Part shown: positions 3,979-27,774 of the stretch, piece after piece
How positions within the stretch are numbered: position 1 is the stretch's first letter
Layout: each line of letters opens with the position of its first letter
Origin: Planctomycetota bacterium
GTDB taxonomy: Bacteria > Planctomycetota > Planctomycetia > Pirellulales > UBA1268
DNA: 35,753 nucleotides
NCBI GenBank assembly: GCA_016872955.1
Contig: VGYP01000002.1
Span: 1-35,753 of the forward strand
Direction of reading: 5' to 3'
The notes under the pieces: model-generated
Told to the model about the DNA's origin: nothing
Databases searched by the model: none
What the model saw: the letters and a program-made list of their open reading frames with translations, nothing else
Translations under genes and position numbers: made by a program

Positions 3979-4097
3979 GGATGCGGCCCCCCCCTCACTT
4001 GACGGTCCCGCAGGGCCGACCTAGGGTCGGGCGGGAGTCTGCACCACGGGCGGTCGCGGGTATCCTCCCGATCGCATCCACTCGGAGCCGGATTACC

Positions 4098-5825: not shown

Positions 5826-7727
5826 ATGCACCGCGAGGACGAGGAGCGCGCGATGTCGCCGCCGAAGGCCGTGCTGCGGCCGTATTTCGACCGGGTGTGG
5901 TATGCGGCCACCTACGGCGGCCGGCGGAGGGTCCGCTGGCGGCCCTGGCGGTACTACCGCGCCCGCGGGCGCCACAAGGCCCACTCGCCCCGGGCGATCT
6001 TCGACGCGGCCTGGTATCTCGCCCGTCACGCCGACGTGCGGGACGCGGGCCTCGATCCGCTCGCGCACTACGTCGCCCACGGCTGGCGGGAGGGCCGTCC
6101 GCCACACCCGCTGTTCGACCCGTCGTGGTATCGGCAGCGCTACACCGAAGTGAAGGCCACCGATGCCGAACCCCTGCTGCACTACCTGACGGAGGGCTGG
6201 CGAAAGGGATACAACCCGCACCCGGCCTTTGACGCGGCGGGCTACCTCGCCCGCAACCCGGACGTGGCGTCGGCCGGACTCGAACCCCTCGCCCACTACC
6301 TCGATCACGGCTGGCGGGAGGGCAGGAATCCGCATCCGTTGTTCGACCTCCACTGGTATCTGGAGCACAATCCCGACGTCGCCCTGGCCGACGTCGAGCC
6401 GCTGGGGCATTTCGTGTCGATCGGCTGGCGGGAACGCAGACGGCTCTCGCCACGGTTCTCGTCGGAGGCCTATGCGACGGCCCGCGGGCCGGCGCCGCAG
6501 ACCGATCCCTTCGTCCACTTCCTGGTCCACGAATACGAGCCGGTCGCCGCCGATGCCAGCAGGCGAGCGGCGGCCGTTGCCCGCTACGCCCCCCGGCTCT
6601 CACCCACGACCGCCGCTGCGTCCGCCGGCGACGAGCCCGCCGCGGGCAATGACGTGCGGGCGATCGCCATGTACCTGCCCCAGTTTCACCGCGTGCCCGA
6701 GAACGACGCCTGGTGGGGCGATGGATTCACCGAATGGACGTTCGTCCGCCGCAGTCGACCGATGTTCGTCGGCCACGAGCAACCCCAGGTGCCCCACGCC
6801 GACGTCGGCTACTACGACCTCGATGATCCCGCCGTGCTGGAGCGACAAGCCGCCATGGCCCGTCGGCACGGGATCCACGGATTCTGCTTCTATCACTACT
6901 GGTTCTCCGGGCGGCGCATCCTGGAAAAACCGCTCCAGCGGCTGCTGGCCAGTGGCCGCCCCAACGTTCCCTTCTGCCTCTGTTGGGCCAACGAGAACTG
7001 GACGCGGACCTGGGATGGCCTCGACGGCGAGGTGCTGCTCGAGCAGCGGCATTCACCCGCGGACGACGAGCGGTTCCTCGTCGACCTGCTGCCGGTCCTC
7101 CGCGACCCGCGTTACATCACGGTCGAGGGTCGGCCGCTCGTGGCCGTCTACCGGCCTGGTCTGCTCGCCGATCCGGCGGCCAGCGCTCGGGCATGGCGGT
7201 GGATCGCCGACCGGGCGGGCCTGCCGGGACTCTATCTCGCGGCCGTCCACGCTTTCGACCAGACCGATCCGCGGACGTTGGGCTTCGATGCGGCGATCCA
7301 GGTTCCGCCGCTGCAACTGTCGGCCCGCCGCCTGTCACCTGCCGAGGCCGGCTCCTTCCGCGGGGGCGTGCTCGACTACCGCGATGCGGTGAGCCACGCC
7401 CTGTCGCAGCCGCTGCCCGACTACCCGCTGTTCCGTGGCGTGATGCCGGGCTGGGACAATACGCCACGGCGGATGGAGCAGGCCACGGTCTGGGCCGGCG
7501 CGACGCCGCGACTCTACGGCCGCTGGCTGCACGCCACCGTCGCACGGATGCGGCGGGAGCAGCCCCCCGAGCGGCGACTGGTGTTCATCAACGCCTGGAA
7601 CGAGTGGGGCGAGGGCGCCCACCTCGAACCGGACCAGCGGCATGGCTACCAGTTCCTGGAGGAGACGGCTGCCGCCCTCCAACCAGAGGTCGCGTCGACA
7701 CCCGCCTCCGCGGGTCGCGCGGCGTGA
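5826..7727 (+). CDS. WbsX / GH99-like domain protein with an N-terminal tandem-repeat region
   Basis: The C-terminal ~350 aa carry AMYLPQFHRVPENDAWWGDGFTEW, FCFYHYWF, CLCWANENWTRTWDG and INAWNEWGEGAHLEP, the Glyco_tran_WbsX / GH99-like signatures. The alternative start ATG 5853 is preceded by GAGGAG. Confidence 0.85.
   Translation: MHREDEERAMSPPKAVLRPYFDRVWYAATYGGRRRVRWRPWRYYRARGRHKAHSPRAIFDAAWYLARHADVRDAGLDPLAHYVAHGWREGRPPHPLFDPSWYRQRYTEVKATDAEPLLHYLTEGWRKGYNPHPAFDAAGYLARNPDVASAGLEPLAHYLDHGWREGRNPHPLFDLHWYLEHNPDVALADVEPLGHFVSIGWRERRRLSPRFSSEAYATARGPAPQTDPFVHFLVHEYEPVAADASRRAAAVARYAPRLSPTTAAASAGDEPAAGNDVRAIAMYLPQFHRVPENDAWWGDGFTEWTFVRRSRPMFVGHEQPQVPHADVGYYDLDDPAVLERQAAMARRHGIHGFCFYHYWFSGRRILEKPLQRLLASGRPNVPFCLCWANENWTRTWDGLDGEVLLEQRHSPADDERFLVDLLPVLRDPRYITVEGRPLVAVYRPGLLADPAASARAWRWIADRAGLPGLYLAAVHAFDQTDPRTLGFDAAIQVPPLQLSARRLSPAEAGSFRGGVLDYRDAVSHALSQPLPDYPLFRGVMPGWDNTPRRMEQATVWAGATPRLYGRWLHATVARMRREQPPERRLVFINAWNEWGEGAHLEPDQRHGYQFLEETAAALQPEVASTPASAGRAA
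5886..6545 (+). repeat. Six tandem 38-aa (114-nt) coding repeats, consensus FDxxWYLxxxPDVxxAGxxPLxHYxxxGWREGRxPHPL
   Basis: FD/FS anchors fall at aa 21, 59, 97, 135, 173 and 211 of the 633-aa ORF, an exact 38-residue period. The first and last units are degenerate. Confidence 0.85.
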
Positions 7728-7820: not shown

Positions 7821-8609
7821 ATGAGTCACGAAGCCAACACCCGGCAGATGCGGGTCTATCTCGCGGAGCACCGCACGGAGATTACCGAAATCGCCGCCCG
7901 ACTGGGCGTCCGAGCGGACGTCCATCCGGCCGACATGATCTTCCAGTTCGTCGCCAAGCACAACGGCTTCCCCGATGCCTACCAGGCAATCCAGTACTAC
8001 TTCACCGACGGCCGGATGTCGGCCGAACGGCTGCGGGAACTGCTGGCCCGCAACCTGCCCGACAAGTCGTCGGGCCGGCTCTTGGAGTTCGCCTCCGGCT
8101 ACGGCTGCGTCACCCGGCACCTGATCGCCCAGGGCCTGCCCGGCTGGGAGGTCACCTGTGCCGACATCCACGACGAGGCGGTGCTGTTTCTGCAGAAGCT
8201 CGGGGCCCGGGCGATGCCGTCGGCGAGCCGGCCCGAGGATCTCCGGCTCCAGCCCTTCGACGTCGTCTTCGCGCTGTCGTTCTTCTCGCACATGCCCGAT
8301 GAGTCGTTCTCGCGGTGGCTGCTGCGGCTCTATGAGGCGGTCCTGCCCGGCGGCCTGCTGGTGTTCACGACGCACGGCTACCAGAGCCTGCCGCATCTGG
8401 GTGATCCCGCCTTCAATCGCCAGGGCTGGTGGTTCCGCGCCGACAGCGAGCAGCTCGACCTGCGGGGCGAGGAGTACGGCTTGATGGCCGTCACACCGTC
8501 GTACGTCTGCGACCGGATCAGGGCCCTGCCGGGCCGGCTGCAGATCGCGGTCTTCAACGAGGGTCTGTGGTGGAACCACCAGGATCTGTGGGTGGTGCGG
8601 CGGGCGTGA
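7821..8609 (+). CDS. Class I SAM-dependent methyltransferase
   Basis: Motif I LLEFASGYGCVTRHL, then FDVVFALSFFSHMPDESF and LPGGLLVFTTHG. Confidence 0.85.
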   Translation: MSHEANTRQMRVYLAEHRTEITEIAARLGVRADVHPADMIFQFVAKHNGFPDAYQAIQYYFTDGRMSAERLRELLARNLPDKSSGRLLEFASGYGCVTRHLIAQGLPGWEVTCADIHDEAVLFLQKLGARAMPSASRPEDLRLQPFDVVFALSFFSHMPDESFSRWLLRLYEAVLPGGLLVFTTHGYQSLPHLGDPAFNRQGWWFRADSEQLDLRGEEYGLMAVTPSYVCDRIRALPGRLQIAVFNEGLWWNHQDLWVVRRA

Positions 8610-11364
8610 CGGCCGCCGCGACCGGCAGCAGTACGTCGCAGCCCTCCACGACCTCGTGCCGCCAGTGGCCGCTGGCGATCCGGGCCCGGATGGCGTCGGT
8701 CGTCGGTCGCCGCCGAAACCACGGCGCCGCCGGCGTGGTATCCGCCTGCGGTGCCACCACGACCGCCCCCAGGGGCAGCCCGCCGAGCGAGACCTCGGGG
8801 TGCTCCCAGACTTCGGCGATATCGGGGAACCAGGCCGGGCAGACGAAGGCCTTGCGGCCCGCGTGGAAGGGCAGCTCGCTGCTGTAGTCCCCCTCCCCGA
8901 AGACGACCAGGCCGCTGGCGGCGGGCGTGGCCTCCCGCAGCCACAGCCCGAGCCGGTAGCGGCCCACGGAGAGCGGGTCCTGCTGCTCGATGGGGCGTTT
9001 GACCACGATGCGGTAGCAGGCACGGTAGGCGGCGACGTTGGCGATCAGGAACGGCACCAGGGCGAGCGGGGCCAGGGCGGCCACCCCCGTCGTCCGCGGC
9101 AGCCAGGAACCGATCGCGATCGCGACCGCGGCCAGCAGAAACATCAGGCAGGCGACTTGGTAGTACTCGTGCACCACGTGCAGGGGGGTGAAGATCGCGA
9201 GGGGCGCGACATAGAGCGCCAGGCACAGGACCACGAGCACCCGCTCGCGGCGTCGCGTGCGACAGCGGCTGCCGTCCGGCCAGCACAGGCAGGCGGCCAG
9301 GGCGGCGACGGCCAGCCATCCGCCGGCGTTCCCCCGCAGCCCCCGTTCCCAGACCACGCCGTGCCACGTCGCGGCATCGAGCCGCAGGGCCAAGGAGCCG
9401 AGGTTGTGGGCCGTCAGACCGCTCGAGGTGAGCAGACGCCCCAGCGGATTGGCCGCCTTAACGGTGTCGGAGTGGGCGACCCAGGCCGCGCCGATCGCGA
9501 GGGCCACCAGCCCGAGCGCCACGCCCCAGGAAGCCCCGGCCCGAAACCTCCGGCCGGCACCGCCGCACCACATCACCGCGCCCGCCACCAGCAGTGCGAG
9601 CAGCACCGGTCCGGTGGTGGTCGACTTCTGGAGCACGCCGAGCGTGGCGGTGGCGACGAACAGTCCGCGGCTCCACCAGCCACCTCGGCTGGCGACGACG
9701 TCGATCCACCAGGGAAGGCAGGCGAGCGTGAAGAACACGGCCGTCGTCTCGATCATGAACGACCGCCCCCAGTAGATGAAAAGCGGCGCCGACCAGAGCA
9801 GGGCAGCGAACACCCAGGGCACCGCCCGAGGCAGCCGCAGCCGCGCGGCGAGTTGCCAGGCGGGCCAGCCGCAGGCCGCCAGAAACAGCCAGCTGACCAC
9901 GCGGCCGGTGGCCGAGAGGTCCCAGCCGGTGACCGCCACGATCGCCGCCACGACCGACTGGTAGATGGGGAACTCGAAGGGGATCGACCAGGGCGCACCC
10001 GCGACGGGCGTCTGGTAGTCGAGCCGCCAGCCCTCGCGAACCATCCACTCCGCCGTCAGCGCCGTCTGCGTCTGTCGGAAGGCGTGGATGTCGACGAGGG
10101 GCTGATCGCGATAGCGGATGGCGATCGATCCCGACACGCAGAGCATGGCCAGCGCCAGCACCACGACGGCCCAGTGCCAGCGGGGATCGGCGAGCACCCC
10201 GCCACGGGCCGGGGGCGACAGGCCCATGGCGGCCGGCATGGGCCGGGGTGCGGCGGAAGTCGCCGCGACCGCTCGGCCGGTGAGGGCGGCGATCAGCCGG
10301 GCCCCGGCACGGATGCCGGGCAGTTCCACCCAGGCGTGGGTGCAGGTCGCCACGGCCGTGACCAGGGCCGTGACCACGCAACCGGTGCCCAGGAAGGCCC
10401 ACTCGCCGAGGATGTCGGTCAGCCCGGTGTGGATGCGGAGAATCGGGTTTTTGAAGACCGCGATCAGCAGCGGATGCAGCAGGTAGATGCTGTAACTGCG
10501 GTCGCCGAGGAACTGCATCGGCCGTGCCGCCAGGAAGTGGGTCGGCGCCGCCGCCTGCCAGACGGTGAGGCCGGCGAAGCACAGGCCCCAGAGCGTCGTC
10601 AAGGGTCGCCACGGCCCCAGCAGCCGCAGTTGCAGCGGTGAGACGAGCACGGCTGCCAGGCCGAGGGTGACGGCCGCCACGATCGCGACCGGGCGTCGGC
10701 CCCCGGGCAGCGCCCGCCACAGGTGGTAGGCGGCGATGCCGACCACGAACACCACCAGCGAAGCGATGAACGACAAGTTGGCGTAGCCCGCCAGCGCGTC
10801 GCCCCCCCGCACTAGCGCCGCCCGACCCGCCCCGCTCACGGCCGCCGCGAGCGCCAGGCAGACAACGGCGGCCCGCAGGCTCTGGATCGTGGCCAGCAGC
10901 ACCGGCAGCAGGCAGTAGAAGATCATCTCGACGCCGATCGTCCAGCCGGCCGCCACGATCGACTCGTGCTTGCCGGGCACCAGGTTGAACGTGAAGGTCA
11001 GGTTGAGCAGCAGCGTGGCCAGGTCGGGCGCCACCCCGTGGCTCCAGAAGTACACCACCCAGACCACGAGCATGCCGTAGAACAGCGGCGCGATCCGGAA
11101 AAACCGCTTCACCAGGTAGTCGCGGATCCAATCGGGCCGCCCCATCGAATGGATCGTCGAGTGGCACAGCGAGAACCCGCTGAGCACGAAGAACAACGTG
11201 ACGCCCAGGCCGAAATGGGTGCCGATGAAGCCGCACCGCGGGGGCAGCGGCAGGGCGACGAGATGGTGGAGGTGGAAGAGCAGCACCGCCACGGCGGCCA
11301 CGCCCCGCAGGCCCAGGAGGGCGGGCAGCAGTTGGCGGGCCGGAGCATGATCGGGGCGTGCCAT
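8554..11364 (-). CDS. Fusion protein: acyltransferase family 3 (OafA/YrhL-like) N-terminal domain plus GT-C-like (ArnT/PMT_2-like) polytopic C-terminal domain
   Basis: The track ORF runs to 11943, but its first 193 aa are Arg/Pro-rich and overlap the upstream gene. ATG 11364 gives MARPDHAPARQLLPALLGLRGVAAVAVLLFHL. AT3 motifs: VTLFFVLSGF, KRFFRIAPLFYG, GWTIGVEMIFYCLLP, GDRSYSIYLLHP. After aa ~430 comes a first-loop segment, DIHAFRQTQTALTAEWMVREGWRLDYQTPVAGAPWSIPFEFPIYQ, followed by more than 10 further hydrophobic helices, resembling lipid-carrier-dependent GT-C enzymes. Confidence 0.75.
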   Translation of the reverse strand: MARPDHAPARQLLPALLGLRGVAAVAVLLFHLHHLVALPLPPRCGFIGTHFGLGVTLFFVLSGFSLCHSTIHSMGRPDWIRDYLVKRFFRIAPLFYGMLVVWVVYFWSHGVAPDLATLLLNLTFTFNLVPGKHESIVAAGWTIGVEMIFYCLLPVLLATIQSLRAAVVCLALAAAVSGAGRAALVRGGDALAGYANLSFIASLVVFVVGIAAYHLWRALPGGRRPVAIVAAVTLGLAAVLVSPLQLRLLGPWRPLTTLWGLCFAGLTVWQAAAPTHFLAARPMQFLGDRSYSIYLLHPLLIAVFKNPILRIHTGLTDILGEWAFLGTGCVVTALVTAVATCTHAWVELPGIRAGARLIAALTGRAVAATSAAPRPMPAAMGLSPPARGGVLADPRWHWAVVVLALAMLCVSGSIAIRYRDQPLVDIHAFRQTQTALTAEWMVREGWRLDYQTPVAGAPWSIPFEFPIYQSVVAAIVAVTGWDLSATGRVVSWLFLAACGWPAWQLAARLRLPRAVPWVFAALLWSAPLFIYWGRSFMIETTAVFFTLACLPWWIDVVASRGGWWSRGLFVATATLGVLQKSTTTGPVLLALLVAGAVMWCGGAGRRFRAGASWGVALGLVALAIGAAWVAHSDTVKAANPLGRLLTSSGLTAHNLGSLALRLDAATWHGVVWERGLRGNAGGWLAVAALAACLCWPDGSRCRTRRRERVLVVLCLALYVAPLAIFTPLHVVHEYYQVACLMFLLAAVAIAIGSWLPRTTGVAALAPLALVPFLIANVAAYRACYRIVVKRPIEQQDPLSVGRYRLGLWLREATPAASGLVVFGEGDYSSELPFHAGRKAFVCPAWFPDIAEVWEHPEVSLGGLPLGAVVVAPQADTTPAAPWFRRRPTTDAIRARIASGHWRHEVVEGCDVLLPVAAAVTPAAPPTDPGGSTTDPR

Positions 11365-11387
11365 CCGCGTCGGCGACGGCCGCGCCG

Positions 11388-12269
11388 TCAGCCGCTCCCC
11401 TCCGTGGCCTGCAGAGAGACGATCCGCTGGAACGGCGACTCCGGTAGGATCTCTTCGTGCATCACCCGCCAGCCGGGGGCCAGGTCGGCCAAGGCCGCCA
11501 CGGTCATCGAGGTGTCGCCATAGGTGATGTCGCCATCGACGGGCGGTCGCTTGTGGGGCCGGAAGGCGAAGCCGTCGGTGGCGTGGGCCGTCTCGAGCTG
11601 TTGCCGATCCTCCGGCGTGAGCCCGGCGTGGACGTTCCAGTACACCACCGGGCGGATCGTGGCCACGAGCAGGCCGCCCGGTGCGGTGGCCGCCCGGATC
11701 GCCGCCAGGGCCTGCCGCGTCGCCCGTCGCGACGTGTGCGTGAACACGGAGAAGGCGTAGACCAGATCGAAGGAGCCGGCGGGGTAGGGCAACCGCTCCG
11801 GCAGATAGGGCGTCACCTGCAGGTCGACGGGAATACGGTCCTGCCGGCAGAGGTCGATCGCTCGATCCCAGGGGTCGCAGCCGAACAGCTGTCCCGGGTC
11901 CGCGGCGTGCAACAACAGCCGCAGCAGGCGGCCGTAGCCGCACCCGTAGTCGAGGATTTTCGCCTCCGCGAGCGGCCGTGTGCCGAGCCGCTGCCAGACG
12001 GCCATCAGTGCCCGCACGAAGGCCAGGCTCTCCGGCAAGAGCGTGCGGCCGGCAGCGCCGGTGAAAGCCTGCTGCGTCTCCGCGGAGGCCATCGCGGGCA
12101 GGAGGCCCGAGAGTGCCGGCAACGCGGGATCGGGCATGTCGAGCAGCGTCTCTCCGAAGGCGTCGAGCGGCAGACGACGGAGCATGCGAAGTGTCGCGTC
12201 GAGGGGAACACCCCCGGCGGCGACGGCCGCCTCGGTGTCGCGGACGATGTCGGCGTGCTGGAGGCTCAT
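11388..12269 (-). CDS. Class I SAM-dependent methyltransferase
   Basis: ATG 12269 (MSLQHADIV...) overlaps the upstream stop as ATGA. Motif I ILDYGCGYGRLLRLL, then FDLVYAFSVFTHT and APGGLLVATI. Confidence 0.85.
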   Translation of the reverse strand: MSLQHADIVRDTEAAVAAGGVPLDATLRMLRRLPLDAFGETLLDMPDPALPALSGLLPAMASAETQQAFTGAAGRTLLPESLAFVRALMAVWQRLGTRPLAEAKILDYGCGYGRLLRLLLHAADPGQLFGCDPWDRAIDLCRQDRIPVDLQVTPYLPERLPYPAGSFDLVYAFSVFTHTSRRATRQALAAIRAATAPGGLLVATIRPVVYWNVHAGLTPEDRQQLETAHATDGFAFRPHKRPPVDGDITYGDTSMTVAALADLAPGWRVMHEEILPESPFQRIVSLQATEGSG

Positions 12270-15200
12270 GACAGGAGACCCTCGCGGGCGGCGGCCCGCC
12301 AACCCTCGCACCTCCGCCGAAACGCGTCCAGCCGCTCGCGCGCGGCCTCTGCGTCGAGCCCCAGGATACCCGCGGCGGCGGCGATCACCTGACGGCCCTC
12401 CTCCCACTCCAGTTCACCCGGCGGACGGGTGCGGGAGTGCGACGTCCGCTGCCGCCAGAGGTTGAGGGGTTCGGGGGAGAAAGCCACGTCGCCGCGGCCA
12501 CAGAGCCGCACGTAGGCCAGCCAGTCGCCGCACAGCCGCATGTCGGCGTCGATCAGGTCGACCAGGTCGGGAGCGTTGCGGAACAGGACGGCGCTGACGT
12601 TGGGAATCGTGTTCTTGTGGATCAGGGCGGCGGCCAGTTCATCGCGGCCGGCGGCGAGGTACGGCTTCCGCCAACGCTCCGGCGAGATGTCGGCCGTCCA
12701 GTCGAGCGGCAGCCCCAGCGAGCCGCCCCGTTCGTCGATCATCTCCGACTGGCAGTAGGCCAGCACGGCCTGCGGATTCGCTTCGAGCATCGCGACGAGC
12801 GTCCGCAACAGCCCGGGTCGCGCGGCGTCGTCCGATTCGGTGATCCACACGTAGCGGCCCCGCGCCTGGACGAGGCCCTTGCGCCACTGGCGGAAGGCGG
12901 AGCCGGAGTTGACCGTGTTGGCCACCACCGAGGCCCGCGGCTCGCGCCGCGCGAACTCCTCGAGGATGGCGAGGCTGCCGTCGCCCGATCGATCGTCGAG
13001 CAGGATGATCTCGATGTCCACGACATCCTGGTCGAGGATCGACGCTAACCGCTCGGGGAGGTGTGGGGCGTGCTCGTAGTTGGGCACGATCACGCTGACG
13101 AGCGGAGCCGCGGCTGCCGCCCAGGCCCGCCGGCCGGCGGCCACCTCCCGCAGCAGACGCAGCGTCTCGGTGGCCACCACGCGGCTGTCGTAGGTGGCCC
13201 GCACACGGCCGGCGATCGAGCGACCCAGCGACCGCCGCTGCCCGGCGTCATCGGCCAGACGGAGGATCGCGGCCGTCGCCGCCGCGACGTCCTCCATCGG
13301 CACCACCACGCCGCCGTCGTCGCCCACGAACGCTGGGATGTCGCCGGCGCCGGCGAAGCAGACCACCGGCAGGGCGGTCGCGGCGGCCTCCAAAGCGACC
13401 AGCGGCATCGGATCCTCGCGGGACGAGAGCAGGAACAGGTCGGCCGCGTGCAGGAGCCGTCGCACGTCCCCCCGCGTACCCAGAAAATGCACGTGTCCCT
13501 CCAGGTTCCGCTCGGCGAGCCATTCGCGGTGGTAGTCGGCGTCGCCGCCGGCCCAGACGAATCGCAGGTCGGACCTGTGGGCGACGGCCCGGGCCGCGAT
13601 CTCGCAGAACAGGTCGGGCCCCTTCCGCCAGTCGGTCGTGCCGCAGCCGACGACCACGATGCCGGTGGGGTCCGCGCCCCACTCGCTTCGCAGAGCCTCG
13701 ATCACCGCCGTGGACGGGGCCTCGTCGTCGCAGGCGATGTGGGCGGGCACGACCTGCACCAGGTCCGCCGCGATGCCGTGCCGGACGACCAGGTTGTCGC
13801 GGATCGCCGGCGCGGCCGCCATGAACAGGTCGCTGGCGCGGCGTGTGGCCGCGAAGATCTCCCCCGGCGCCCAGTGCTCGATCGACTTTTGCAGTTCATG
13901 GGCGTGGGTCACGATCGGCATGCCGAGAGGCCGGATCCATTCGAGCACCGGTCCGTTGACCACGGTGCTCGAGTAGACGACCGACGGCGGGCGACCGGCG
14001 AAGTCGGCGGCGGCGGCCAGCGCCCGACGGCGGCCGGGCTCGTCGGGCAGGTCTTCGAGCACCGTCGTGGGATAGGCGGCCTCGAAGGCCGGCCGCAGCA
14101 CGCCCCCACCCACGCACACGATCCGCACGCCCTCGATCCCCGCCCGCTTCCACTGCTGCACGGTGCGGAGCGTCACCATCTGGGCCCCGGCCAGGTGGGC
14201 GTCGTGGCTGAGCACGAGCAGCCGCAGATCGTCACGGGGGGCGGGTGCCTGGGGAGCCAGGCCCACCGCGGCGGCCGTCTCCTCGAGATGGCGGTAGCCG
14301 TGCCGCACGTCGGGCTCGAGATGGGCCCCCTCCGCCCACTCGTTCCAGGCATTGACGAACACCAGCCGCCGGTCGGGCGGCTGCTCGCGGCCGGTGAGGG
14401 CGATCGCCTCCCGCAGCCAGCGGCCGTAGGCTTCCGGCGAGGCGTGCATCCAGGCCGTGGCCCGCTCCATGCGGCGGGCGGTGTTGTCCCAGGCGGGCAT
14501 CACGCCTCGATACAGCGTGGCGTCCGGGGCCGCCTCCGCCAGCGAAAACCGCGCGGCGTCTTCGTACTCGAAAAGCGAGCCGCGAAACGACGGATCGGCC
14601 CCCACCGTCGGGTCGGCGGCACGGTTCTCCGCCGGGATCAGCAGCGGCGGAAACTGGATCGCTGCATCGAATCCGAACTCGCGAGGATTCCGCTTGTCGA
14701 AGCTGCGGACCGCCACGAGGTGGAGTTCTCCGACCCCCTCGTCGCGGCAGGCCCGCCGCCACGTGGCCGCGGTGGCGGCGGCGTCGGACAACGATTCGGG
14801 CCGGTAGACCGCCACCAGCGGCCGCCCCTCGACCCGCACGTACCGCCGGTCGCGGAGGTAGGGGATCAGGTCGTAGATGAAGCGGGCGTCGTTGTCCGGC
14901 AAATGCTGCTGCGCGACGAGCACCTCGCGCTCGCGGCCGTCCCAGGTGCGGGTCCAGTTCTCGTTGGCCCAGCAGAGGCAGAAGGGAAAGTCCGGCCGGC
15001 CCGTCGCCAGCAGCCGTTCGAGCGGCTTCTCGAGCAGTCGGCGACCGTCGAACCAGTAGTGATAGAAGCAAAAGGCATGCACGCCGTAGCGGCGGGCCAT
15101 GGCCGCCTGCCGCTCGAGCGTGTCCGGGTCGAGCAGGTCGTAGTAGCCGATGTCGGGGTGTGGGACGGCGGGCTGCTCGTGACCGGGAAAGAAGGGGCGG

Positions 15201-17032
15201 CCGCGGTGGACATTGGTCCATTCGGTGAACCCCTCGCCCCACCAGGCATCGTTCTCGGGGATGCGGTGGAACTGCGGCAGGTGCATCGCGATCACCCGCA
15301 GCCCCGCGGGCGGGCCGGCCGGCGGCAGGGACCCAAGTCCGAGCGGGCCGTTTGCCAGGGCGTTGCTGACGGTCCGCCACTCGCGATACGATCGCGTCCA
15401 GCCGAAGACCCAGGGCAGGCGGGTGAAGAGAAACCCGCGCAGCCGCTGCTTGGCGGGGATACTCATGGGCAGGCGGCGCCACCAGCGGCGTCCCGTCCGC
15501 GACAGGCGGTCCGCGGTCCGGACGGGCAGCCTCTGGCCCCAGCGGCGGAGATCCCGCAGGGGTGCCGTCAGCCGCCACGAGCGGCTCTTCGCCATGCGCG
15601 ACAGTTCGCGATCGAGTTGCCGTCGGAAGGCGATGTTGTCGCGGCAGGCCGCCTCCAGCCGCTCGACGTCGTCCCGGAGCACGTCGGCCGTCGCCTCCGC
15701 GGTGGCCAGCGCCTCGACGAGCCGGGCTCGTTCGGCCGATAACCCGGCCAGTTTCTCGTGCTGCAGGGCGTGTTCCGCCTGCAGGTCGGAGAGTTGTCCC
15801 GTGACGCGGTCGCACTGCCGCCGAGCGGCCTCCTCGACGAGCGTTAGCCGCGCCGTCTCGGCCTCAAGCGACCGTTCGCGCTCGACGAGCGCGTCGCGTT
15901 CGGCCGCCAGGGCGTCGATCCTGGCCACCAGCTGCTCGGCCTGTTTCGTCAGGCCGGCCGCACGCGTTCGCTCGGCCTCGAGGCGGTTAGCCTCGGCCTC
16001 GTGACGGCGCAGGTCCGCCTCATGGAGGGCGGCCCGTTCGCTGGCATCGGTCAGCTGCTGCTGTTGGGCGATGCGATAGCCCTCGGCCCGCGAGGTGGCG
16101 TCGTCGAGCGACAGTCGCGTCTGGAGCAACTCGGCGGTGAGTCCGGCTTGGTTCCGGCCGGCCTCCTCCAGGGCGGCGTTCGTGCGGGCCAGGTCCCCTT
16201 CCACCGCCCGCAGGCGCGACCAGAGCATGACCGCGGCGTCGAAGGCCGGCAGGGTCGAGGCGTCGGCCGCCGTGTCGGCCCCCGCAGCCGTGCCGCGGAG
16301 CGACTCGTGGAGACGCGCCGTGTCGGGGGCCGCCAGCCGCAATGCCGCCGCGATGGCCGGTGGCTCGACCGCGTGCAGCATGCCCGACCGGTAGCACGCG
16401 GGCGGATCCACGACCGGCATCCCGAAGCGGTCCCGGAGCGTTCCGAACAGGGCGGCCGGCCGTTCGACGACCCGCTCGAGGTCGCAGACGACGATCCGTT
16501 CTGGCCACCGCTGGGCGAAGACGAGCAGGGACTGGTTGTAGTGCCGCCAGACATCGAGCGCGAAGGTGGGATTGGCGCGGAAAGCCCAGTCGCCCCGCCG
16601 AAACAGCGAGTCGATCACGTCCCAGGGCGGCCGTACAACGGCCACGAACACCGCTTCGGGGAGACACTCCCGCCAAAAGTCGAGTAGCAGGGTGGTGCGC
16701 GGGTTCTTCCACCCCCAGGGATGGCCACGGCGGCGACGATCCCAGGCGAGTTGTTCGGCCTCGCGCCGCAGCCCGTCGGGCACCGTGATGCCGCCGCCCG
16801 CCACGAAGCCCTCCGGTCCGATGCCGGTGGCCTGCAGCACCCGCTCGTGCCAGTGCAAAAACTCAAGGTCCTCGAAGTGGCCCGCCCCGTTGCCAGGGTG
16901 CGGCCCCAACAGATCGGTGCCCATGTCGATGCCGGCCGCCTGGCAGAGTGACGCCACCAGCGACGTGCCGGAGCGGTGCATGCCCACGACGACGACGGCC
17001 GGCGGATGATTCGCGCTGCTGGATTCGGCCAT
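12266..17032 (-). CDS. 1588-aa multidomain polysaccharide biosynthesis protein: sulfotransferase, coiled coil, WbsX/GH99-like, GT4 (GT-B), GT2 (GT-A)
   Basis: Sulfotransferase: VVVVGMHRSGTS and WGWKNPRTTLLLDFW. Coiled coil at aa ~268-480. WbsX: MHLPQFHRIPENDAWWGEGFTEW, CLCWANENWTRTWDG, NAWNEWAEGAHLEP. GT4: VVVGCGTTDWRKGPDLF...HVHFLGTRGDV...SSREDPMPLVALEAAATALPVVCF. GT2: VSVIVPNYEHAPHL...IILLDDRSGDGS...WITESDD. Approximate nt spans: ST 16388-17005, coiled coil 15593-16231, WbsX 14273-15301, GT4 13133-14230, GT2 12443-13105. Confidence 0.85.
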   Translation of the reverse strand: MAESSSANHPPAVVVVGMHRSGTSLVASLCQAAGIDMGTDLLGPHPGNGAGHFEDLEFLHWHERVLQATGIGPEGFVAGGGITVPDGLRREAEQLAWDRRRRGHPWGWKNPRTTLLLDFWRECLPEAVFVAVVRPPWDVIDSLFRRGDWAFRANPTFALDVWRHYNQSLLVFAQRWPERIVVCDLERVVERPAALFGTLRDRFGMPVVDPPACYRSGMLHAVEPPAIAAALRLAAPDTARLHESLRGTAAGADTAADASTLPAFDAAVMLWSRLRAVEGDLARTNAALEEAGRNQAGLTAELLQTRLSLDDATSRAEGYRIAQQQQLTDASERAALHEADLRRHEAEANRLEAERTRAAGLTKQAEQLVARIDALAAERDALVERERSLEAETARLTLVEEAARRQCDRVTGQLSDLQAEHALQHEKLAGLSAERARLVEALATAEATADVLRDDVERLEAACRDNIAFRRQLDRELSRMAKSRSWRLTAPLRDLRRWGQRLPVRTADRLSRTGRRWWRRLPMSIPAKQRLRGFLFTRLPWVFGWTRSYREWRTVSNALANGPLGLGSLPPAGPPAGLRVIAMHLPQFHRIPENDAWWGEGFTEWTNVHRGRPFFPGHEQPAVPHPDIGYYDLLDPDTLERQAAMARRYGVHAFCFYHYWFDGRRLLEKPLERLLATGRPDFPFCLCWANENWTRTWDGREREVLVAQQHLPDNDARFIYDLIPYLRDRRYVRVEGRPLVAVYRPESLSDAAATAATWRRACRDEGVGELHLVAVRSFDKRNPREFGFDAAIQFPPLLIPAENRAADPTVGADPSFRGSLFEYEDAARFSLAEAAPDATLYRGVMPAWDNTARRMERATAWMHASPEAYGRWLREAIALTGREQPPDRRLVFVNAWNEWAEGAHLEPDVRHGYRHLEETAAAVGLAPQAPAPRDDLRLLVLSHDAHLAGAQMVTLRTVQQWKRAGIEGVRIVCVGGGVLRPAFEAAYPTTVLEDLPDEPGRRRALAAAADFAGRPPSVVYSSTVVNGPVLEWIRPLGMPIVTHAHELQKSIEHWAPGEIFAATRRASDLFMAAAPAIRDNLVVRHGIAADLVQVVPAHIACDDEAPSTAVIEALRSEWGADPTGIVVVGCGTTDWRKGPDLFCEIAARAVAHRSDLRFVWAGGDADYHREWLAERNLEGHVHFLGTRGDVRRLLHAADLFLLSSREDPMPLVALEAAATALPVVCFAGAGDIPAFVGDDGGVVVPMEDVAAATAAILRLADDAGQRRSLGRSIAGRVRATYDSRVVATETLRLLREVAAGRRAWAAAAAPLVSVIVPNYEHAPHLPERLASILDQDVVDIEIILLDDRSGDGSLAILEEFARREPRASVVANTVNSGSAFRQWRKGLVQARGRYVWITESDDAARPGLLRTLVAMLEANPQAVLAYCQSEMIDERGGSLGLPLDWTADISPERWRKPYLAAGRDELAAALIHKNTIPNVSAVLFRNAPDLVDLIDADMRLCGDWLAYVRLCGRGDVAFSPEPLNLWRQRTSHSRTRPPGELEWEEGRQVIAAAAGILGLDAEAARERLDAFRRRCEGWRAAAREGLLS
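15593..16231 (-). other. Predicted coiled-coil segment (~210 aa) inside the 1588-aa protein
   Basis: A continuous Ala/Glu/Arg/Leu/Gln-rich stretch that is nearly free of Pro and poor in Gly, for example LEAERTRAAGLTKQAEQLVARIDALAAERDALVERERSLEAETARLTLVEEAARR. It ends before KSRSWRLTAPLRDL. Confidence 0.6.
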
Positions 17033-17132: not shown

Positions 17133-17669
17133 TCAGCGATCCGGCCCGAACCGCGGTGCAGCGGCGTCCCGCGGCGACAAGACTGGAGGCCCGTTCAGCG
17201 GCCAGTCGATGGCCAGGGTCGGGTCGTCCCAACGGACGCACCGCTCGCAGCCGGGCGCGTAGAAGGCGGTGGCCTTGTAGAGCACCTCGGCCACCTCCGA
17301 GAGGACGAGAAACCCGTGGGCCAGCCCCTCTGGCACCCACAGTTGACGACGGTTGGTGGCCGTGAGTTCCACACCCACCCAGCGGCCGAAGGTCGGCGAG
17401 CCGGGGCGAATGTCGGCGGCCACGTCGAACACGCTGCCCACCACGACCCGCACGAGCTTGCCCTGCGGCTGCGGCTCCTGGTAGTGCAGGCCGCGGAGCA
17501 CGTGCCGGCGACTGGTGCTATGGTTGTCCTGCACGAAGGGAACGGTTCGCCCGACCGCCGCCGCGAAGGCGGCCGCGTTGAAACTCTCGAAGACCGAACC
17601 TCGGTCGTCGCCGAACAGTTGTGGCTCGATCACGAGCACGTCCGGGATGGCGGTGGGCTCGGCCTTCAC
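17133..17669 (-). CDS. rmlC: dTDP-4-dehydrorhamnose 3,5-epimerase
   Basis: Motifs: [71 protein letters not shown]. The likely start is GTG 17669, overlapping the rmlA stop as GTGA. The track ORF extends to 17801 through implausible sequence. Confidence 0.9.
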
Positions 17670-18553
17670 GGCAGGCGGCCCTCGCCCGGCAGGCCGAGCA
17701 GATACTCGCCGTAGCCGCTCTTGACCAGCGGTCGGGCGAGGTCGGCGAGGGCCTGATCGTCGATCCAGCCGTGCCGCCAGGCGATCTCCTCGGGGCAGCA
17801 AATCTTGAGCCCCTGCCGCTTCTCGAGGGACTGGATGAACTGGGCGGCCTCGATCAGGCTGTCGTGCGTGCCGGTGTCGAGCCAGGCGTCGCCGCGGCCC
17901 ATCAACTCGACCGCCAGCTGGCCCCCTTCGAGGTAGACGCGATTGACGTCGGTGATTTCGAGTTCGCCCCGCGCCGAGGGCTCGATGCCGCGGGCGATGT
18001 CGACGACCTGCTCGTCGTAAAAGTAGAGCCCCGTGACGGCGTAGCGGCTGCGGGGTCGTCGGGGCTTCTCCTCGATCGAGACCGCCCGACCGGCCGCGTC
18101 GAACTCGACGACGCCGTAGCGTTCCGGGTCGGCGACGGGATAGGCGAAGACGGTCGCGCCGGCGGAGCGGGCCGCCGCTGCTGCCAGCCGCTGCGCGAGG
18201 CCGTGGCCGTAGAAGATGTTGTCGCCGAGCACGAGCACCGACGGGCTGCCCGCCAGGAACGCCTCCCCGAGCAGGAAGGCCTGGGCGAGCCCCTCCGGAC
18301 GGGGCTGCTCGGCGTAGGCCAGATGGATGCCCCAGTGGTTTCCGTCGCCGAGCAGCTCGCGAAACCGGGGCGTGTCGTGGGGCGTCGAGATCACGAGGAT
18401 CTCGCGGATGCCCGCCAGCAGGAGCACGCTAAGCGGGTAGTAGATCATCGGCTTGTCGTACACCGGCAGCAGCTGCTTGGAGACCCCGAGCGTGACCGGG
18501 TGGAGCCGGGTGCCGCTGCCGCCGGCCAGGATGATGCCCTTCCGCATGGTCAT
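17666..18553 (-). CDS. rmlA: Glucose-1-phosphate thymidylyltransferase
   Basis: [56 protein letters not shown]. The track start at 18580 is a TTG; ATG 18553 or 18547 is more likely. Confidence 0.92.
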
Positions 18554-18583
18554 GCCGTGCCCGCCGGGGATCGGACGCAATGC

Positions 18584-19480
18584 TCAGTCGTGGGCGGCCG
18601 CGACCAAGGCCGCGACCGCCGCCCGCACGCCATCTTCCCACCTCGGCAGCCGACGTGCGAGGGCAGCTTCCAGTTTGGCGGTGCACAGCCGCGAGTTGGC
18701 AGGGCGGCGGGCGGCAGTCGGATACTCGGCCGTGGCCAGTGGCCGCACGCCCCCGGGCCGCACCTTGAGCGGCAGACCCGCCGCCCGCGCCTCGGTGAGC
18801 AGCATCTCAGCGTAGGCGTGCCAGGTGGTCTCGCCCCGTGGGGCGAGGTGATAGAGGCCCGGGGCAGGGGCCGCCGCATCCCCGGCGCGCCCGAGAAACT
18901 CGGCGGTGATCTCGGCGATCAGGGCCGCGGGGGTCGGTGCGCCGGTCTGGTCGGCCACCACGGCCAACTCCTCCCGCTCCGCGGCCAGTCGCAGGATCGT
19001 CCGCAGGAAGTTCGCGCCGTGCAGGGCGTACACCCAACTGGTGCGGAACACGTAATGGCGGCCGCCCGCCGCCGCGACCGCCCGCTCCCCGGCGAGCTTC
19101 GTCCGGCCATAGACCGAGCGTGGTCGCGGCGGGTCGGTCTCGGTGCGGCGGCCAGCGGCCTCGCCGTCGAAGACGTAGTCGGTGGAGTAGTGGACGAGCA
19201 CCGCGTCCAGCCGGCGGGCCTCCGCCGCGATCCGGTCGACGGCCGTGGCGTTGACCAGCTCCGCCCGCTCTGGCTCGGCCTCGGCCCGGTCGACGGCGGT
19301 GTAGGCGGCGGCGTTGACGATCACGTCGGGCCGCTCGCGGGCAAGCAGCGACCGCACCGCGTCGGGATGCTCGAGGTCGGCCCGGTCACGGCCGCAGGCG
19401 ATCACCTCGCCCAGGGCCGGCAGCGTCGCGGCCAGTTCGCGGCCCACCTGACCGGTCGCTCCCAAGAGCACGATCCTCAT
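18584..19480 (-). CDS. rmlD: dTDP-4-dehydrorhamnose reductase
   Basis: MRIVLLGATGQVGRELA..., VIVNAAAYTAVDRAEAEPE, LVHYSTDYVFDG, VYGRTKLAGE. The ATG overlaps the upstream stop as ATGA. Confidence 0.9.
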   Translation of the reverse strand: MRIVLLGATGQVGRELAATLPALGEVIACGRDRADLEHPDAVRSLLARERPDVIVNAAAYTAVDRAEAEPERAELVNATAVDRIAAEARRLDAVLVHYSTDYVFDGEAAGRRTETDPPRPRSVYGRTKLAGERAVAAAGGRHYVFRTSWVYALHGANFLRTILRLAAEREELAVVADQTGAPTPAALIAEITAEFLGRAGDAAAPAPGLYHLAPRGETTWHAYAEMLLTEARAAGLPLKVRPGGVRPLATAEYPTAARRPANSRLCTAKLEAALARRLPRWEDGVRAAVAALVAAAHD

Positions 19481-20244
19481 CGCGGCCCCACGTCGGAGGA
19501 TGGGTGGGTGGGCGGATTGAGCCGCCGATAGTCACCGCAGCTGAAATACCTCTCGAGCCAGACGTAGGCCACGATGAAGAAATAGCGGGTGCCCATCTCG
19601 CGGATCCTGAGCTTGGCGATGCCGGTGCGGCGGTTCCGCCAACTGATCGGGATCACCGTCCAGGTGAAGCCGCGGACGATCGCCTTGAGCGGCAGCTCAA
19701 CGGTGATGTTGAAGTGGGGCGAGAGAATCGGCATGCAGCCCTCGATCACCTCCCGACGGTAGGCCTTGAAGGCGTTGGTGGTGTCGTTGAGCCGGATCTG
19801 GAACAGCACCCGCACGAACCAGTTGGCCAGCCGGTTCAGGAACAGCTTCACCCGCGGGTAGTCGACCACGGCACTGCCCTTGATGAAGCGGCTGCCGAAG
19901 ACGCAATCCCAGCCCTCGCCGAGCAGGCGCCAGTAGCGGACGACGTCGCTGGGGTCGTCGCTCTGGTCGGCCATCATGATCACCACGGCGTCGCCGCTGA
20001 AGGCGGCCAGCCCCCGCTGGATCGCCCGACCGAAGCCGTGCGGGCCCGGGTTCCTCACCGGCACGAGTACGGCGATCCGCGCGGCCAGCTGTTCGAGCAG
20101 GCTCCAGGTCGCGTCGGTCGAGCCGTCGTCGACCACGACGATCTCGTGAGGCACGCCCTGGAACGTGAGCTCGGCATCGAGGTGTTCCACGGTCGAGGCG
20201 ATGCAGCCCTCCTCGTCGCGGGCCGGGATCACGACCGACAGCAT
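19477..20244 (-). CDS. Family 2 glycosyltransferase, polyprenol-phosphate sugar synthase type (GtrB/ArnC/DPM1-like)
   Basis: The internal ATG 20244 gives MLSVVIPARDEEGCI...IVVVDDGSTDAT...VIMMADQSDDPSD...NDTTNAFKAYRREV. The upstream 172 aa of track ORF 19477..20760 are Arg/Pro/Ser-rich and overlap the preceding gene. Confidence 0.8.
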   Translation of the reverse strand: MLSVVIPARDEEGCIASTVEHLDAELTFQGVPHEIVVVDDGSTDATWSLLEQLAARIAVLVPVRNPGPHGFGRAIQRGLAAFSGDAVVIMMADQSDDPSDVVRYWRLLGEGWDCVFGSRFIKGSAVVDYPRVKLFLNRLANWFVRVLFQIRLNDTTNAFKAYRREVIEGCMPILSPHFNITVELPLKAIVRGFTWTVIPISWRNRRTGIAKLRIREMGTRYFFIVAYVWLERYFSCGDYRRLNPPTHPSSDVGPR

Positions 20245-20284
20245 GCGGGGTGGCGCGGGGCGAGGCGGCCAGGCCGCCGTCCGC

Positions 20285-21370
20285 TCAGCCGTCGCAGCGG
20301 TCGAGCCAGCCTGGATGGCGTTCGGCATGGTCGGCGATTTCCTCGAAGATGCTTGGTGCGTTGCGTGCCGGCCGCCAGCCATGGCGGGCCGTCGCGGCGG
20401 AGTGGTCGAGCACGACCCAGGGCAGGTCGTAGGGCCGGATTTCGGTCGACGCTCCCACATCATGGTGCCCGAAGCGTGCGGCGCACCAGGCCGAAAGCTC
20501 GGCCAGGCTCGTCGCCGCGGCCGCGCCCCCCGCCGCGTTGACGAGTTCGGGCGCGCCCGGTCTGACCGCGGCCATCTGCATGACCAGCAGATCGGCCAGG
20601 TCGTCGGGATGGAGGCAGTCGCGGACCTGCAGGCCGCGACCGCCGAAGCCGATCGTGGCGAGCGGTCGCCGGGCGGCCCAGCGGTGGATCCACCAGGAGA
20701 AGATGCCCTGGTCGGCCCGGCCGAACTGCCCCGCCCCCGCCAGCACGCCGCAGCGGTCAATCACCAGCGGCGTGCCGGCGGCGTTCGCGTATTCGCCGGC
20801 GAGCGTCTCGCCGGCGAGCTTCGTCGCGCCGTAGAGCGAACAGGGCGGCCCGGCCGGAAAGTCCTCGCGGATGCCGGCGGCCGACACGCCCGGCGGCAGG
20901 GGCCGCGTCTCGTCGAGGGCGAAGCAGGCGGCGCCGCGGCCGGCCCGCTTCACCATCGGCAGGGCGGCGAGGGCCGGGATCGCATACACGCGGCTGGTGC
21001 TCAGGAGCACGACGCCGGCCTGCCAGCGGGCGGCGGCCTCCAGCAGGTTGACGGTGCCCAGCAGGTTGTGGTCGACCAGTTGCCGGCGGCCGGTGTGCCC
21101 GCCGGCGGCTGTGCCGGCCAGCACGCTCGGCTCGGCGGCCGCGTCGATCACCCAGTCGACCGGTCCAAGCGGGTCGATGTCGGCGGCCAGTCGCACGTCG
21201 CCGTGCACGACGCGCACGCCGCGGGCCTCGAGATCGGCCACGTTGGTCTCAGAGCCACGGCGACGGAGGCTGTCGATCACCGTGATCGAGACACCCGTGC
21301 GGGCAGCCAGCAGTCGCCGGCAGATCGCCGCCCCCACGAACCCACAGCCGCCGGCGAGGAGAATCTTCAT
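20285..21370 (-). CDS. NAD-dependent epimerase/dehydratase (extended SDR, CDP-paratose-2-epimerase-like)
   Basis: MKILLAGGCGFVGAAICRRL..., VIDAAAEPSV, NLLGTVNLLEAA, LLSTSRVYAI, YGATKLAGE. Confidence 0.8.
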   Translation of the reverse strand: MKILLAGGCGFVGAAICRRLLAARTGVSITVIDSLRRRGSETNVADLEARGVRVVHGDVRLAADIDPLGPVDWVIDAAAEPSVLAGTAAGGHTGRRQLVDHNLLGTVNLLEAAARWQAGVVLLSTSRVYAIPALAALPMVKRAGRGAACFALDETRPLPPGVSAAGIREDFPAGPPCSLYGATKLAGETLAGEYANAAGTPLVIDRCGVLAGAGQFGRADQGIFSWWIHRWAARRPLATIGFGGRGLQVRDCLHPDDLADLLVMQMAAVRPGAPELVNAAGGAAAATSLAELSAWCAARFGHHDVGASTEIRPYDLPWVVLDHSAATARHGWRPARNAPSIFEEIADHAERHPGWLDRCDG

Positions 21371-21380
21371 GCGGGTGGAC

Positions 21381-23548: not shown

Positions 23549-23635
23549 GGATGCGCTCCGGGGCGGCCGCGGGTGCCCGGCCGAACGGGTACCGGCGGCC
23601 GGCCTGAGGCCGCCCGCGTCCCGAGGCCTCCAAGG

Positions 23636-23681
23636 ATACCCCCCGGGAACGGCCGCAGCACGACGAATCAGGGGGTATGAT
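23636..23681. promoter_or_regulatory. Inverted repeat (ATACCCCC / GGGGGTAT, 27-nt spacer) whose right arm overlaps a -10-like TATGAT, in the rmlB/queD divergent gap
   Basis: Arms at 23636-23643 and 23671-23678, TATGAT at 23676-23681. The element lies in the 186-nt gap between divergent starts at 23548 (-) and 23735 (+). Confidence 0.3.
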
Positions 23682-23734
23682 TGGTGCAATCGCTGCGGTC
23701 GGCACCGCCGATCGGCCCGCGTTCTTTCCGCCCG

Positions 23735-25281
<1,547 letters not shown>

Positions 25282-25370
25282 ATCACGCCCCCGTGAGGGG
25301 AGTCTGCGTTGACCGCCTGGCCCATCTCGGGGGTGAGGTATGATCTGCCGATATGCGGAGAGGAGGTCGA

Positions 25371-26733: not shown

Positions 26734-26759
26734 TCGCGATGCCTCGGGCAGGCGGACGG

Positions 26760-27305: not shown

Positions 27306-27314
27306 GGCGGGCGG

Positions 27315-27698: not shown

Positions 27699-27753
27699 GC
27701 GGCGGCGATCGGTCGGGATGACCCAGGGTTGTAGCAGACGCTGGAACCAGGCT

Positions 27754-27774
27754 GTCGCCGCAGGAGGCGGCGAC
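27754..27774. other. GC-rich hairpin (8-bp perfect stem, 5-nt AGGAG loop) in the VOC/lysS divergent gap
   Basis: GTCGCCGC-AGGAG-GCGGCGAC at 27754-27774, with the same geometry as the hairpin at 17112-17132. Confidence 0.25.

Follow-up and report, generated by a model that had tools for sequence, protein, structure and literature searches.

Methyl groups and Kdo (3-deoxy-D-manno-octulosonic acid) are established terminator chemistries in the assembly of bacterial surface glycans (PMC11231755). WbbB of Klebsiella pneumoniae O12 and Raoultella terrigena combines a GT99 beta-Kdo terminator, a coiled coil, and GT102 and GT103 polymerase modules (PMC11231755). ORF6 of K. pneumoniae O7 consists of a methyltransferase-kinase, a coiled coil and two fused glycosyltransferase family 2 (GT2) modules, and WbdD of Escherichia coli O9a and Klebsiella O3 of a methyltransferase-kinase, a coiled coil and a membrane helix (PMC11231755). 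In O8/O9a/O12-type systems the cap is read by Wzt_C, the carbohydrate-binding module (CBM) of the transporter protein Wzt, and transporters that lack a CBM go with obligatorily coupled, uncapped extension and export, as in Klebsiella O2a (PMC11231755). Here we describe a 1588-aa protein encoded in a stretch of DNA from a Planctomycetota bacterium (contig VGYP01000002.1, positions 1 to 35,753; "the window" below is this whole stretch of 35,753 nucleotides). From its domain content and by analogy, we consider it somewhat probable that the protein is a single-polypeptide polymerase-terminator for an ABC-transporter-dependent, rhamnose-containing planctomycete surface glycan, with a distal sulfate cap that would set chain length.

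The open reading frame (ORF) runs uninterrupted for 1588 codons on the minus strand, from an ATG at 17032 to a stop codon at 12266-12268. A first-pass annotation, made from the letters of the window, had reported one uninterrupted frame at 12266-17032; this holds once the strand is corrected to minus. A plus-strand reading of 12266-17032 was ruled out, as that frame is riddled with stops. The window has ~70% G+C, and third-position G+C backs this ORF and its neighbors as genuine genes. The start, MAE..., is common to orthologs at 64-84% identity. The five modules that had been proposed for the protein were all verified by Pfam, sequence statistics and AlphaFold2 (AF2) modeling. Pfam places Sulfotransfer_3 at residues 11-207 (35.0 bits where the cut-off is 27, covering profile positions 1-214 of 216), Glyco_tran_WbsX (PF14307) at 580-918 (433 bits), the GT4 pair Glyco_transf_4 and Glycos_transf_1 at 949-1271 (with Glyco_trans_1_4 also matched), and Glycos_transf_2 at 1313-1424. 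A scan against NCBIfam added generic glycosyltransferase (GT) matches only. The parts of the gene, all on the minus strand, are as follows:

12266-17032, minus strand: whole ORF, 1588 aa, with the ortholog-shared ATG at 17032
16250-17002, minus strand: sulfotransferase domain, residues 11-261 (Pfam, motifs, profile, AF2 and Foldseek)
15587-16249, minus strand: coiled-coil spacer, residues 262-482, ~221 aa (Pro scarcity, 3.5-residue periodicity, AF2 helices)
15353-15586, minus strand: conserved junction, residues 483-560, candidate membrane anchor or docking site (charge, amphipathicity, no indels)
14258-15298, minus strand: WbsX module, residues 579-925, predicted glycoside hydrolase family 99 (GH99)-like (beta/alpha)8 barrel (Pfam, AF2, Foldseek, profile)
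13133-14230, minus strand: GT4 module of GT-B type, residues 935-1300 (Pfam, PDB sequence matches)
12269-13120, minus strand: GT2 module of GT-A type, residues 1305-1588 (Pfam, PDB sequence matches)

The N-terminal domain is, by all tests run (hidden Markov model (HMM), motifs, profile and predicted fold), a sulfotransferase of the type dependent on 3'-phosphoadenosine-5'-phosphosulfate (PAPS). The first-pass annotation had named it a sulfotransferase from two short motifs, VVVVGMHRSGTS and WGWKNPRTT, both of which are present in the protein, and had proposed an HMM search as the check; the domain matches Sulfotransfer_3 above cut-off and keeps its PAPS-binding residues. Conservation was assessed in an alignment of 70 homologs with 24-82% identity to the first 575 residues of the window protein. 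The 5'-phosphosulfate-binding (5'-PSB) loop G17-M-H-R-S-G-T-S24, along with K109/P111/R112 and R145, is invariant or at least 90% conserved, and R134, P136 and S142 are invariant, forming a candidate 3'-phosphate-binding (3'-PB) motif, R134-P136...S142...R145. We take these conserved motifs to be the 5'-phosphosulfate loop and 3'-phosphate motif of PAPS-dependent sulfotransferases. A single-sequence search of the PDB with the domain returned only a marginal match, to a CurM-type protein (E=0.81). A 22-sequence profile matched the CurM/olefin-synthase sulfotransferase domains at E=8e-10 and the tyrosylprotein sulfotransferase TPST1 at 5e-8, and aligned the 3'-PB segment with the equivalent region of these enzymes. 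The AF2 model of residues 1-575 has a mean predicted local distance difference test score (pLDDT) of 81.8, mostly >90 in the head. In a Foldseek search of the PDB with this model, ranks 1-21 are all sulfotransferases (among them OLS-ST, TPST1/2, Stf1, CurM-ST, Stf9, Stf0, 3-OST-3 and the Alicyclobacillus acidocaldarius sulfotransferase, 3rnl), with P-loop kinases lower. A P-loop kinase identity was rejected on this ranking, on the presence of the 3'-PB motif, and on the lack of a Lys at the G-x-x-x-x-G-K-S/T position. The domain is 59-83% identical among orthologs.

Behind the head lies the segment that had been described as a coiled coil of ~210 aa, nearly Pro-free and poor in Gly, and this description proved accurate. 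Between residues 268 and 480 there are 0 Pro and 7 Gly, and A/E/L/R/Q/D/K make up 75%; a single Pro occurs within 262-482. Core hydrophobics recur with a 3.5-residue periodicity (power 2.13 vs 0.16 in shuffles; 0/2000 shuffles reached 2.13, p<1/2000), and the same test on 268-480 gave no signal at a 3.6-residue period. Across 262-482 the heptad phase drifts only within about one residue, which argues for one continuous heptad register and not two independent helices. AF2 predicts helices at 262-379 and 399-482, separated by a low-confidence stretch at 380-398 (window 15839-15895, minus strand). At 380-398 pLDDT drops to <50 despite an uninterrupted heptad phase and the absence of any Pro or Gly cluster; the dip could be a hinge, or an artifact of monomer modeling and alignment gaps. 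Overall, a single continuous helix over 262-482 is likely from the heptad phase, and the spacer would measure ~30-33 nm if it is one continuous coiled coil. The ~30 nm originally suggested was for one continuous helix, and the AF2 break makes such continuity likely only.

Coil length is kept and coil sequence is not. Among 8 orthologs the spacer is 30-34% identical (73% in the closest) with many gaps, whereas the catalytic modules are 59-89% identical and essentially gap-free. Indels among orthologs fall mostly within the spacer, and yet its span is held at 212-243 aa. Fast sequence divergence at a kept length is what one would expect if a spacer is under selection for its length. More distant homologs have between about 160 and about 640 residues from head to junction.

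A search of 5.8 billion proteins identified seven full-length orthologs, relatives of about 1750-2075 aa that carry both sulfotransferase and WbsX domains, and about 50 cyanobacterial sulfotransferase-spacer-GT2 proteins of ~1000 aa. We also scanned loci, taking one genome per species (at least 80 loci) and mapping HMMs of the five modules onto large ORFs. Among the loci listed, the full order of sulfotransferase, coil, junction, WbsX, GT4 and GT2 occurs in one ORF in Proteobacteria and Acidobacteriota, and the closest WbsX relatives are from planctomycete metagenome-assembled genomes (MAGs). Cultured carriers include Rhodobacter capsulatus DSM 1710, Dyella flava, Massilia eburnea, Paracoccus shanxieyensis and Mangrovicella endophytica; the 5'-PSB and other sulfotransferase motifs are intact in the Rhodobacter, Paracoccus, Dyella and Massilia proteins. 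Dyella flava DHOC52 and Massilia eburnea JCM 31587 pair the full gene with a Wzt that has Wzt_C, whereas R. capsulatus DSM 1710 is a carrier without a CBM. The database search for this domain order that the first-pass annotation had suggested thus finds it in other genomes, including those of cultured bacteria. The architecture is widespread, not rare, with full-length proteins in many phyla and cultured species. At E<=1e-30 the sulfotransferase subfamily comprises 505 clusters (50% identity), a number that rises to 4022 at E<=1e-10. It includes many stand-alone proteins of 480-540 aa with a sulfotransferase, a coil and a basic tail, and in two loci (L004 and L034) sulfotransferase and coil form a protein of their own, adjoining the cassette. 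Three long relatives (P0010, P0011 and P0013; 2027-2075 aa) hold sulfotransferase, WbsX, GT and S-adenosylmethionine (SAM)-methyltransferase domains in one protein.

As a unit, the WbsX-GT4-GT2 cassette is conserved, and it often occurs without a sulfotransferase. A Pfam survey of the N-terminal parts of ten cassette proteins revealed a variety of other heads:

SAM methyltransferase: L019, L036 and L054
Capsule_synth (Kdo-transferase type): L026
polysaccharide pyruvyltransferase: L028
FkbM methyltransferase plus GT4: L001
PIG-L plus GT2: L005
sulfatase/alkaline-phosphatase fold: L018, a Methanoperedenaceae archaeon MAG
no Pfam match (819 aa and 529 aa): L021 and L032

The SAM methyltransferase, Capsule_synth and pyruvyltransferase heads join the cassette through the same junction as the sulfotransferase. 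The heads of L018, L021, L032, L005 and L001 possibly represent further terminator chemistries. The survey supports placing the sulfotransferase in a swappable "terminator slot" of cassette proteins. Among sulfotransferase-type loci in which a Wzt was found, 7/12 have a Wzt_C (L006, L008, L009, L010, L034, L064 and L075). In each of these seven, the C-terminal extension of Wzt is 214-258 aa and matches Pfam Wzt_C, and wzt lies directly upstream.

The junction at 483-560 sits exactly between the coil and the polymerase part. It has a net charge of +17 in 78 aa, and every other module is net negative. It carries 11 aromatic residues, an Arg/Trp/Phe-rich helix run and the motif S-x-S-W-R-L-T-x-P-L-R; the protein-wide peak of hydrophobic moment, at 504-521, falls inside it. 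The segment is free of indels among orthologs. It is found below methyltransferase, Kdo-type and pyruvyl heads and also at the N-terminus of polymerase-only proteins. No transmembrane segment was predicted in the 1588-aa protein, and a search of the PDB with the junction matched nothing meaningful. We infer from its composition and conservation that the junction is a candidate peripheral membrane anchor or docking element.

Of the three glycosyltransferase-type modules in the first-pass annotation, GT4 and GT2 stand, and the WbsX module is better described as a barrel with a hydrolase-type Glu pair. Its AF2 model has a predicted template modeling score of 0.84, and Foldseek matched it to OpGH99A (5ngw, E=2e-11), GH99 endo-alpha-mannosidases (2e-9) and GH71. 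A 12-sequence WbsX profile matches OpGH99A at E=1e-5, and profile alignment places the invariant WbsX segment N-A-W-N-E898-W-A-E901-G on S-F-N-E-W-H-E-G of Bacteroides GH99 (BxGH99). We presume that the N-E-W-H-E-G segment of BxGH99 carries the GH99 catalytic Glu pair. On profile and predicted fold, the module is a GH99-like (beta/alpha)8 TIM barrel that keeps a Glu-x-x-Glu pair. The fold is common to the GH99 endo-alpha-mannosidases/mannanases (Bacteroides, human MANEA) and OpGH99A, but the WbsX module is only ~14-15% identical to GH99 enzymes, is cytoplasmic, and is fused to Leloir GTs in a biosynthetic protein. Its role in the polymerase may be non-Leloir transfer, trimming or binding. Rhamnose is 6-deoxy-mannose, and we speculate that a manno-specific apparatus would be chemically compatible with a rhamnose polymer. 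As a GH99-like barrel, the Pfam family named "Glycosyltransferase WbsX" would place a hydrolase-type active site within a cytoplasmic polymerase. The GT4 and GT2 parts are ordinary Leloir modules by their matches: PDB sequence matches include WaaG, PimB, BshA and PglA-type enzymes for GT4, and chondroitin synthase, heparosan synthase and GalT1 for GT2. In Burkholderia gladioli, a >1454-aa "WbsX" glycosyltransferase encoded beside wzt is needed for O-antigen-dependent phage sensitivity (PMC13391952), which we count as support for the polymerase-terminator reading.

The surrounding genes are those of a glycan locus (assignments by Pfam):

17133-24109, minus strand: rmlC, rmlA, rmlD, a GT2 gene, two short-chain dehydrogenase/reductase (SDR) epimerase/reductase genes and rmlB, upstream of the giant gene in the same minus-strand run
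11388-12407, minus strand: methyltransferase, beginning where the giant gene stops or close to it (arrangement kept in the ortholog)
8554-11943, minus strand: Acyl_transf_3 protein, start uncertain
7821-8609, plus strand: methyltransferase
5826-7727, plus strand: stand-alone second WbsX protein, 633 aa (WbsX, 434 bits at 280-613)
4965-5693, plus strand: wzt, 242 aa (ABC_tran only)
3981-4958, plus strand: wzm (ABC2_membrane)
1973-3103 and 2977-3978, minus strand: two GT2 genes
1-1065, minus strand: O-antigen-ligase-like protein (Wzy_C), cut off by the window edge

On the minus strand, the order leading into the giant gene is rmlB, the two SDR epimerase/reductases, GT2, rmlD, rmlA and rmlC; downstream of it come the methyltransferase and then the large Acyl_transf_3 protein. 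The 242-aa Wzt has no Pfam match to Wzt_C, in line with the caveat already attached to the first-pass annotation that the adjacent Wzt has no CBM. In the locus of a 64%-identical ortholog (L081/L082), synteny is complete and extends to the short Wzt and to the AspRS/MoCF/ALAD flank, so we regard the arrangement as a stable feature of the lineage.

Several other features of the locus were recorded. The first ~220 residues of the second WbsX protein are about five tandem repeats of ~38 aa with the consensus F-D-x-x-W-Y-x-x-x-x-P-D-V-x-x-A-G-x-x-P-L-x-H-Y-x-x-x-G-W-R-E-G-R-x-P-H-P. This repeat also stands ahead of the WbsX-GT4-GT2 cassette in other loci, among them those of Acetobacteraceae/Gluconobacter (L039-L055). 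We considered whether this N-terminus could be a detached Wzt-type CBM and rejected the idea, given its tandem repeats, the lack of any Pfam match in the N-terminal 285 aa, and the lack of similarity to Wzt extensions. The Acyl_transf_3 protein is very long (1022 aa in the ortholog; here the ORF leaves room for up to 1129 aa), and Pfam matches nothing in its C-terminal ~600 residues. The glycan locus sits between the housekeeping genes hemB/ALAD, MoCF and AspRS (window 24151-29490), and this flank arrangement is kept at 64% identity, an unusual stability for an O-antigen-type cluster. Also encoded is a DUF1559 (SBP_bac_10) protein with an N-terminal methylation (N_methyl) motif (25353-26393, plus strand), from a family strongly expanded in Planctomycetota; together with the planctomycete MAGs that hold the closest WbsX relatives, it agrees with the planctomycete origin of the DNA.

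We propose the following mechanism. The protein would oligomerize through a parallel coiled coil, and the basic junction could tether the C-terminal cassette to the cytoplasmic side of the membrane, where the cassette would extend an undecaprenyl-diphosphate-linked chain from dTDP-L-rhamnose and other donors. The distal sulfotransferase would reach only the non-reducing ends of chains long enough to span the ~30-nm coil. Sulfation of such an end from PAPS would block further extension and so set the modal chain length. Wzm/Wzt would then export the finished chain, and, as the Wzt here has no cap-reading module, export would not be gated by the cap. The chain may subsequently be ligated by the Wzy_C protein.

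We read the head as a terminator based on the interchangeable heads, the split sulfotransferase-coil proteins and the seven loci with a Wzt_C. Several observations weigh against this reading. A CBM is present in every experimentally terminated system described (PMC11231755), and neither the Wzt of the window nor the short Wzt of the ortholog (246 aa) has one. Some subfamily members (P0064-P0078) are fused directly to GT2 without a coiled coil, through spacers of 19-69 aa, so the subfamily is not restricted to distal terminators. The low AF2 confidence at 380-398 may reflect a hinge or hairpin, no PAPS-synthesis genes were found among the window ORFs scanned, and the two methyltransferases of the locus could provide another cap. 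The main rival, which we regard as unlikely though worth serious consideration, is that sulfate is added internally along the chain, that the coil only oligomerizes or scaffolds, and that length follows from transporter-to-polymerase stoichiometry as in Klebsiella O2a. A Wzt without a CBM, here and in the ortholog, would fit this explanation, since CBM-less transporters go with coupled extension and export in O2a (PMC11231755). So would the coil-less GT2 fusions and the ~50 cyanobacterial sulfotransferase-spacer-GT2 proteins, cyanobacteria being known for internally sulfated polysaccharides (PMC8205485). However, a rigid ~30-nm spacer separating modifier from polymerase is difficult to justify for a modification made at every repeat, and the coil keeps its length and not its sequence, which also counts against this rival. 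Internal sulfation also sits poorly with a head position that is interchangeable with methyltransferase and Kdo-type terminator heads, and with the Wzt_C proteins in 7/12 loci. From sequence, a terminal cap and an internal decoration are both conceivable places for the sulfate, and this locus has no cap-reading CBM.

The methyltransferases suggest another route to termination. One of them (11388-12407 or 7821-8609) could end growth with a methyl cap, leaving the sulfotransferase with a secondary modification, of the end or of the adaptor, that does not terminate growth. Methyl is an established cap (PMC11231755), one methyltransferase gene directly adjoins the giant gene's stop codon here and in the ortholog, and P0010, P0011 and P0013 unite methyltransferase and sulfotransferase domains. 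We find this improbable, as both enzymes are only about 260-300 aa and have no coiled coil, and the terminator position is occupied by the sulfotransferase. Least probable of all is that the N-terminal domain is inactive or uses a donor other than PAPS, serving as a glycan-end-binding or regulatory head. The Pfam score only modestly above cut-off (35 vs 27) and the weak single-sequence PDB match (E=0.81) point that way. Against them stand two PAPS phosphate-binding motifs that are invariant or nearly so in 70 diverged homologs, top profile and fold matches that are exclusively sulfotransferases, and the 59-83% identity of the domain among orthologs.

If the sulfotransferase is the terminator, sulfate would join methyl, phosphomethyl and Kdo as a length-setting cap, and would be the first to add a strong negative charge, from PAPS. 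Planctomycetes, known for sulfatases, would then themselves build a sulfated envelope glycan. More broadly, we suggest as plausible rather than probable that ABC-transporter-dependent glycan pathways widely end their chains by PAPS-dependent sulfation of the non-reducing end, a terminating chemistry that would have gone unrecognized by experiment. Many bacterial phyla would use it, in fused as well as split formats, and some Wzt_C modules would be specialized for a sulfated terminus. The GH99-like barrel of the cassette, cytoplasmic and with its catalytic Glu pair intact, would act on a manno-configured (rhamnose) polymer, either in non-Leloir transfer or in trimming. Since the large family extends to bacteria that are cultured and tractable (Rhodobacter capsulatus, Dyella flava, Massilia eburnea, Paracoccus), the idea is directly testable. 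With its interchangeable heads, the WbsX-GT4-GT2 cassette amounts to a natural experiment in the modular swapping of terminators, and the GH99-like module is an unexplained, putatively catalytic component of a widespread polymerase. A full-text literature search on sulfotransferase terminators, coiled coils and O-antigens returned no characterized example. The 2019 terminator census of Mann, Kimber and Whitfield (Glycobiology 29:822) is said to have predicted "new chemistries", and sulfotransferase heads may already figure there.

Compared with known coiled-coil terminator systems, the locus has the Wzm/Wzt transporter, the extended coil and GT modules fused to the coil protein, and lacks the cap-reading CBM on Wzt. 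Because this last feature is missing, we call the protein a variant of the capped-glycan systems and not a member; it is a real, uncharacterized variant of a known system. Like WbbB, whose glycan contains rhamnose and is made in a Wzm/Wzt pathway (PMC11231755), it has an N-terminal enzyme, a long coiled coil and C-terminal polymerizing-type modules in one polypeptide; its own locus has rhamnose genes and Wzm/Wzt. Unlike WbbB, the head is Sulfotransfer_3, the polymerase modules are WbsX, GT4 and GT2, and the putative cap is sulfate from PAPS, not Kdo from CMP-Kdo; in addition, the O12 Wzt has a CBM and that of the window does not. No Capsule_synth or GT99 match was found in the 1588-aa protein by Pfam, and the PDB sequence search returned no WbbB chains. 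The first-pass annotation had the protein copying the WbbB layout: the order of modifier, ruler and polymerase is real, and the likeness is one of analogy, as the protein is not a WbbB homolog.

ORF6 and WbdD similarly place a small-group transferase at the coil's distal end, and ORF6 shares the fused polymerase GTs. The membrane-associating region at the proximal end of the WbdD coil is comparable to the basic junction, and the split and stand-alone sulfotransferase-coil proteins mirror the WbdD (WbdD/WbdA) format. The window protein differs from both in its putative donor (PAPS vs SAM/ATP), in a sulfotransferase fold unrelated to the methyltransferase and kinase folds, and in a Wzt without a CBM. 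In mammals, the HNK-1 sulfotransferase caps LARGE1 matriglycan, where a non-reducing-end sulfate stops elongation by a dual glycosyltransferase; a sulfate cap can therefore work as a terminator. That eukaryotic, Golgi-luminal case differs in that the sulfotransferase is a separate enzyme, there is no coiled-coil ruler, and the glycan is unrelated. Finally, the bacterial sulfotransferase-spacer-GT proteins, from cyanobacteria and the cultured carriers, are true homologs of the same sulfotransferase subfamily with identical motifs, a variable Pro-poor spacer (about 150 to about 640 aa) and often the same junction and cassette; the searchable literature yielded none that has been characterized. 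Those of the cultured species are 31-41% identical to the window protein, and many of their loci do encode a Wzt_C.

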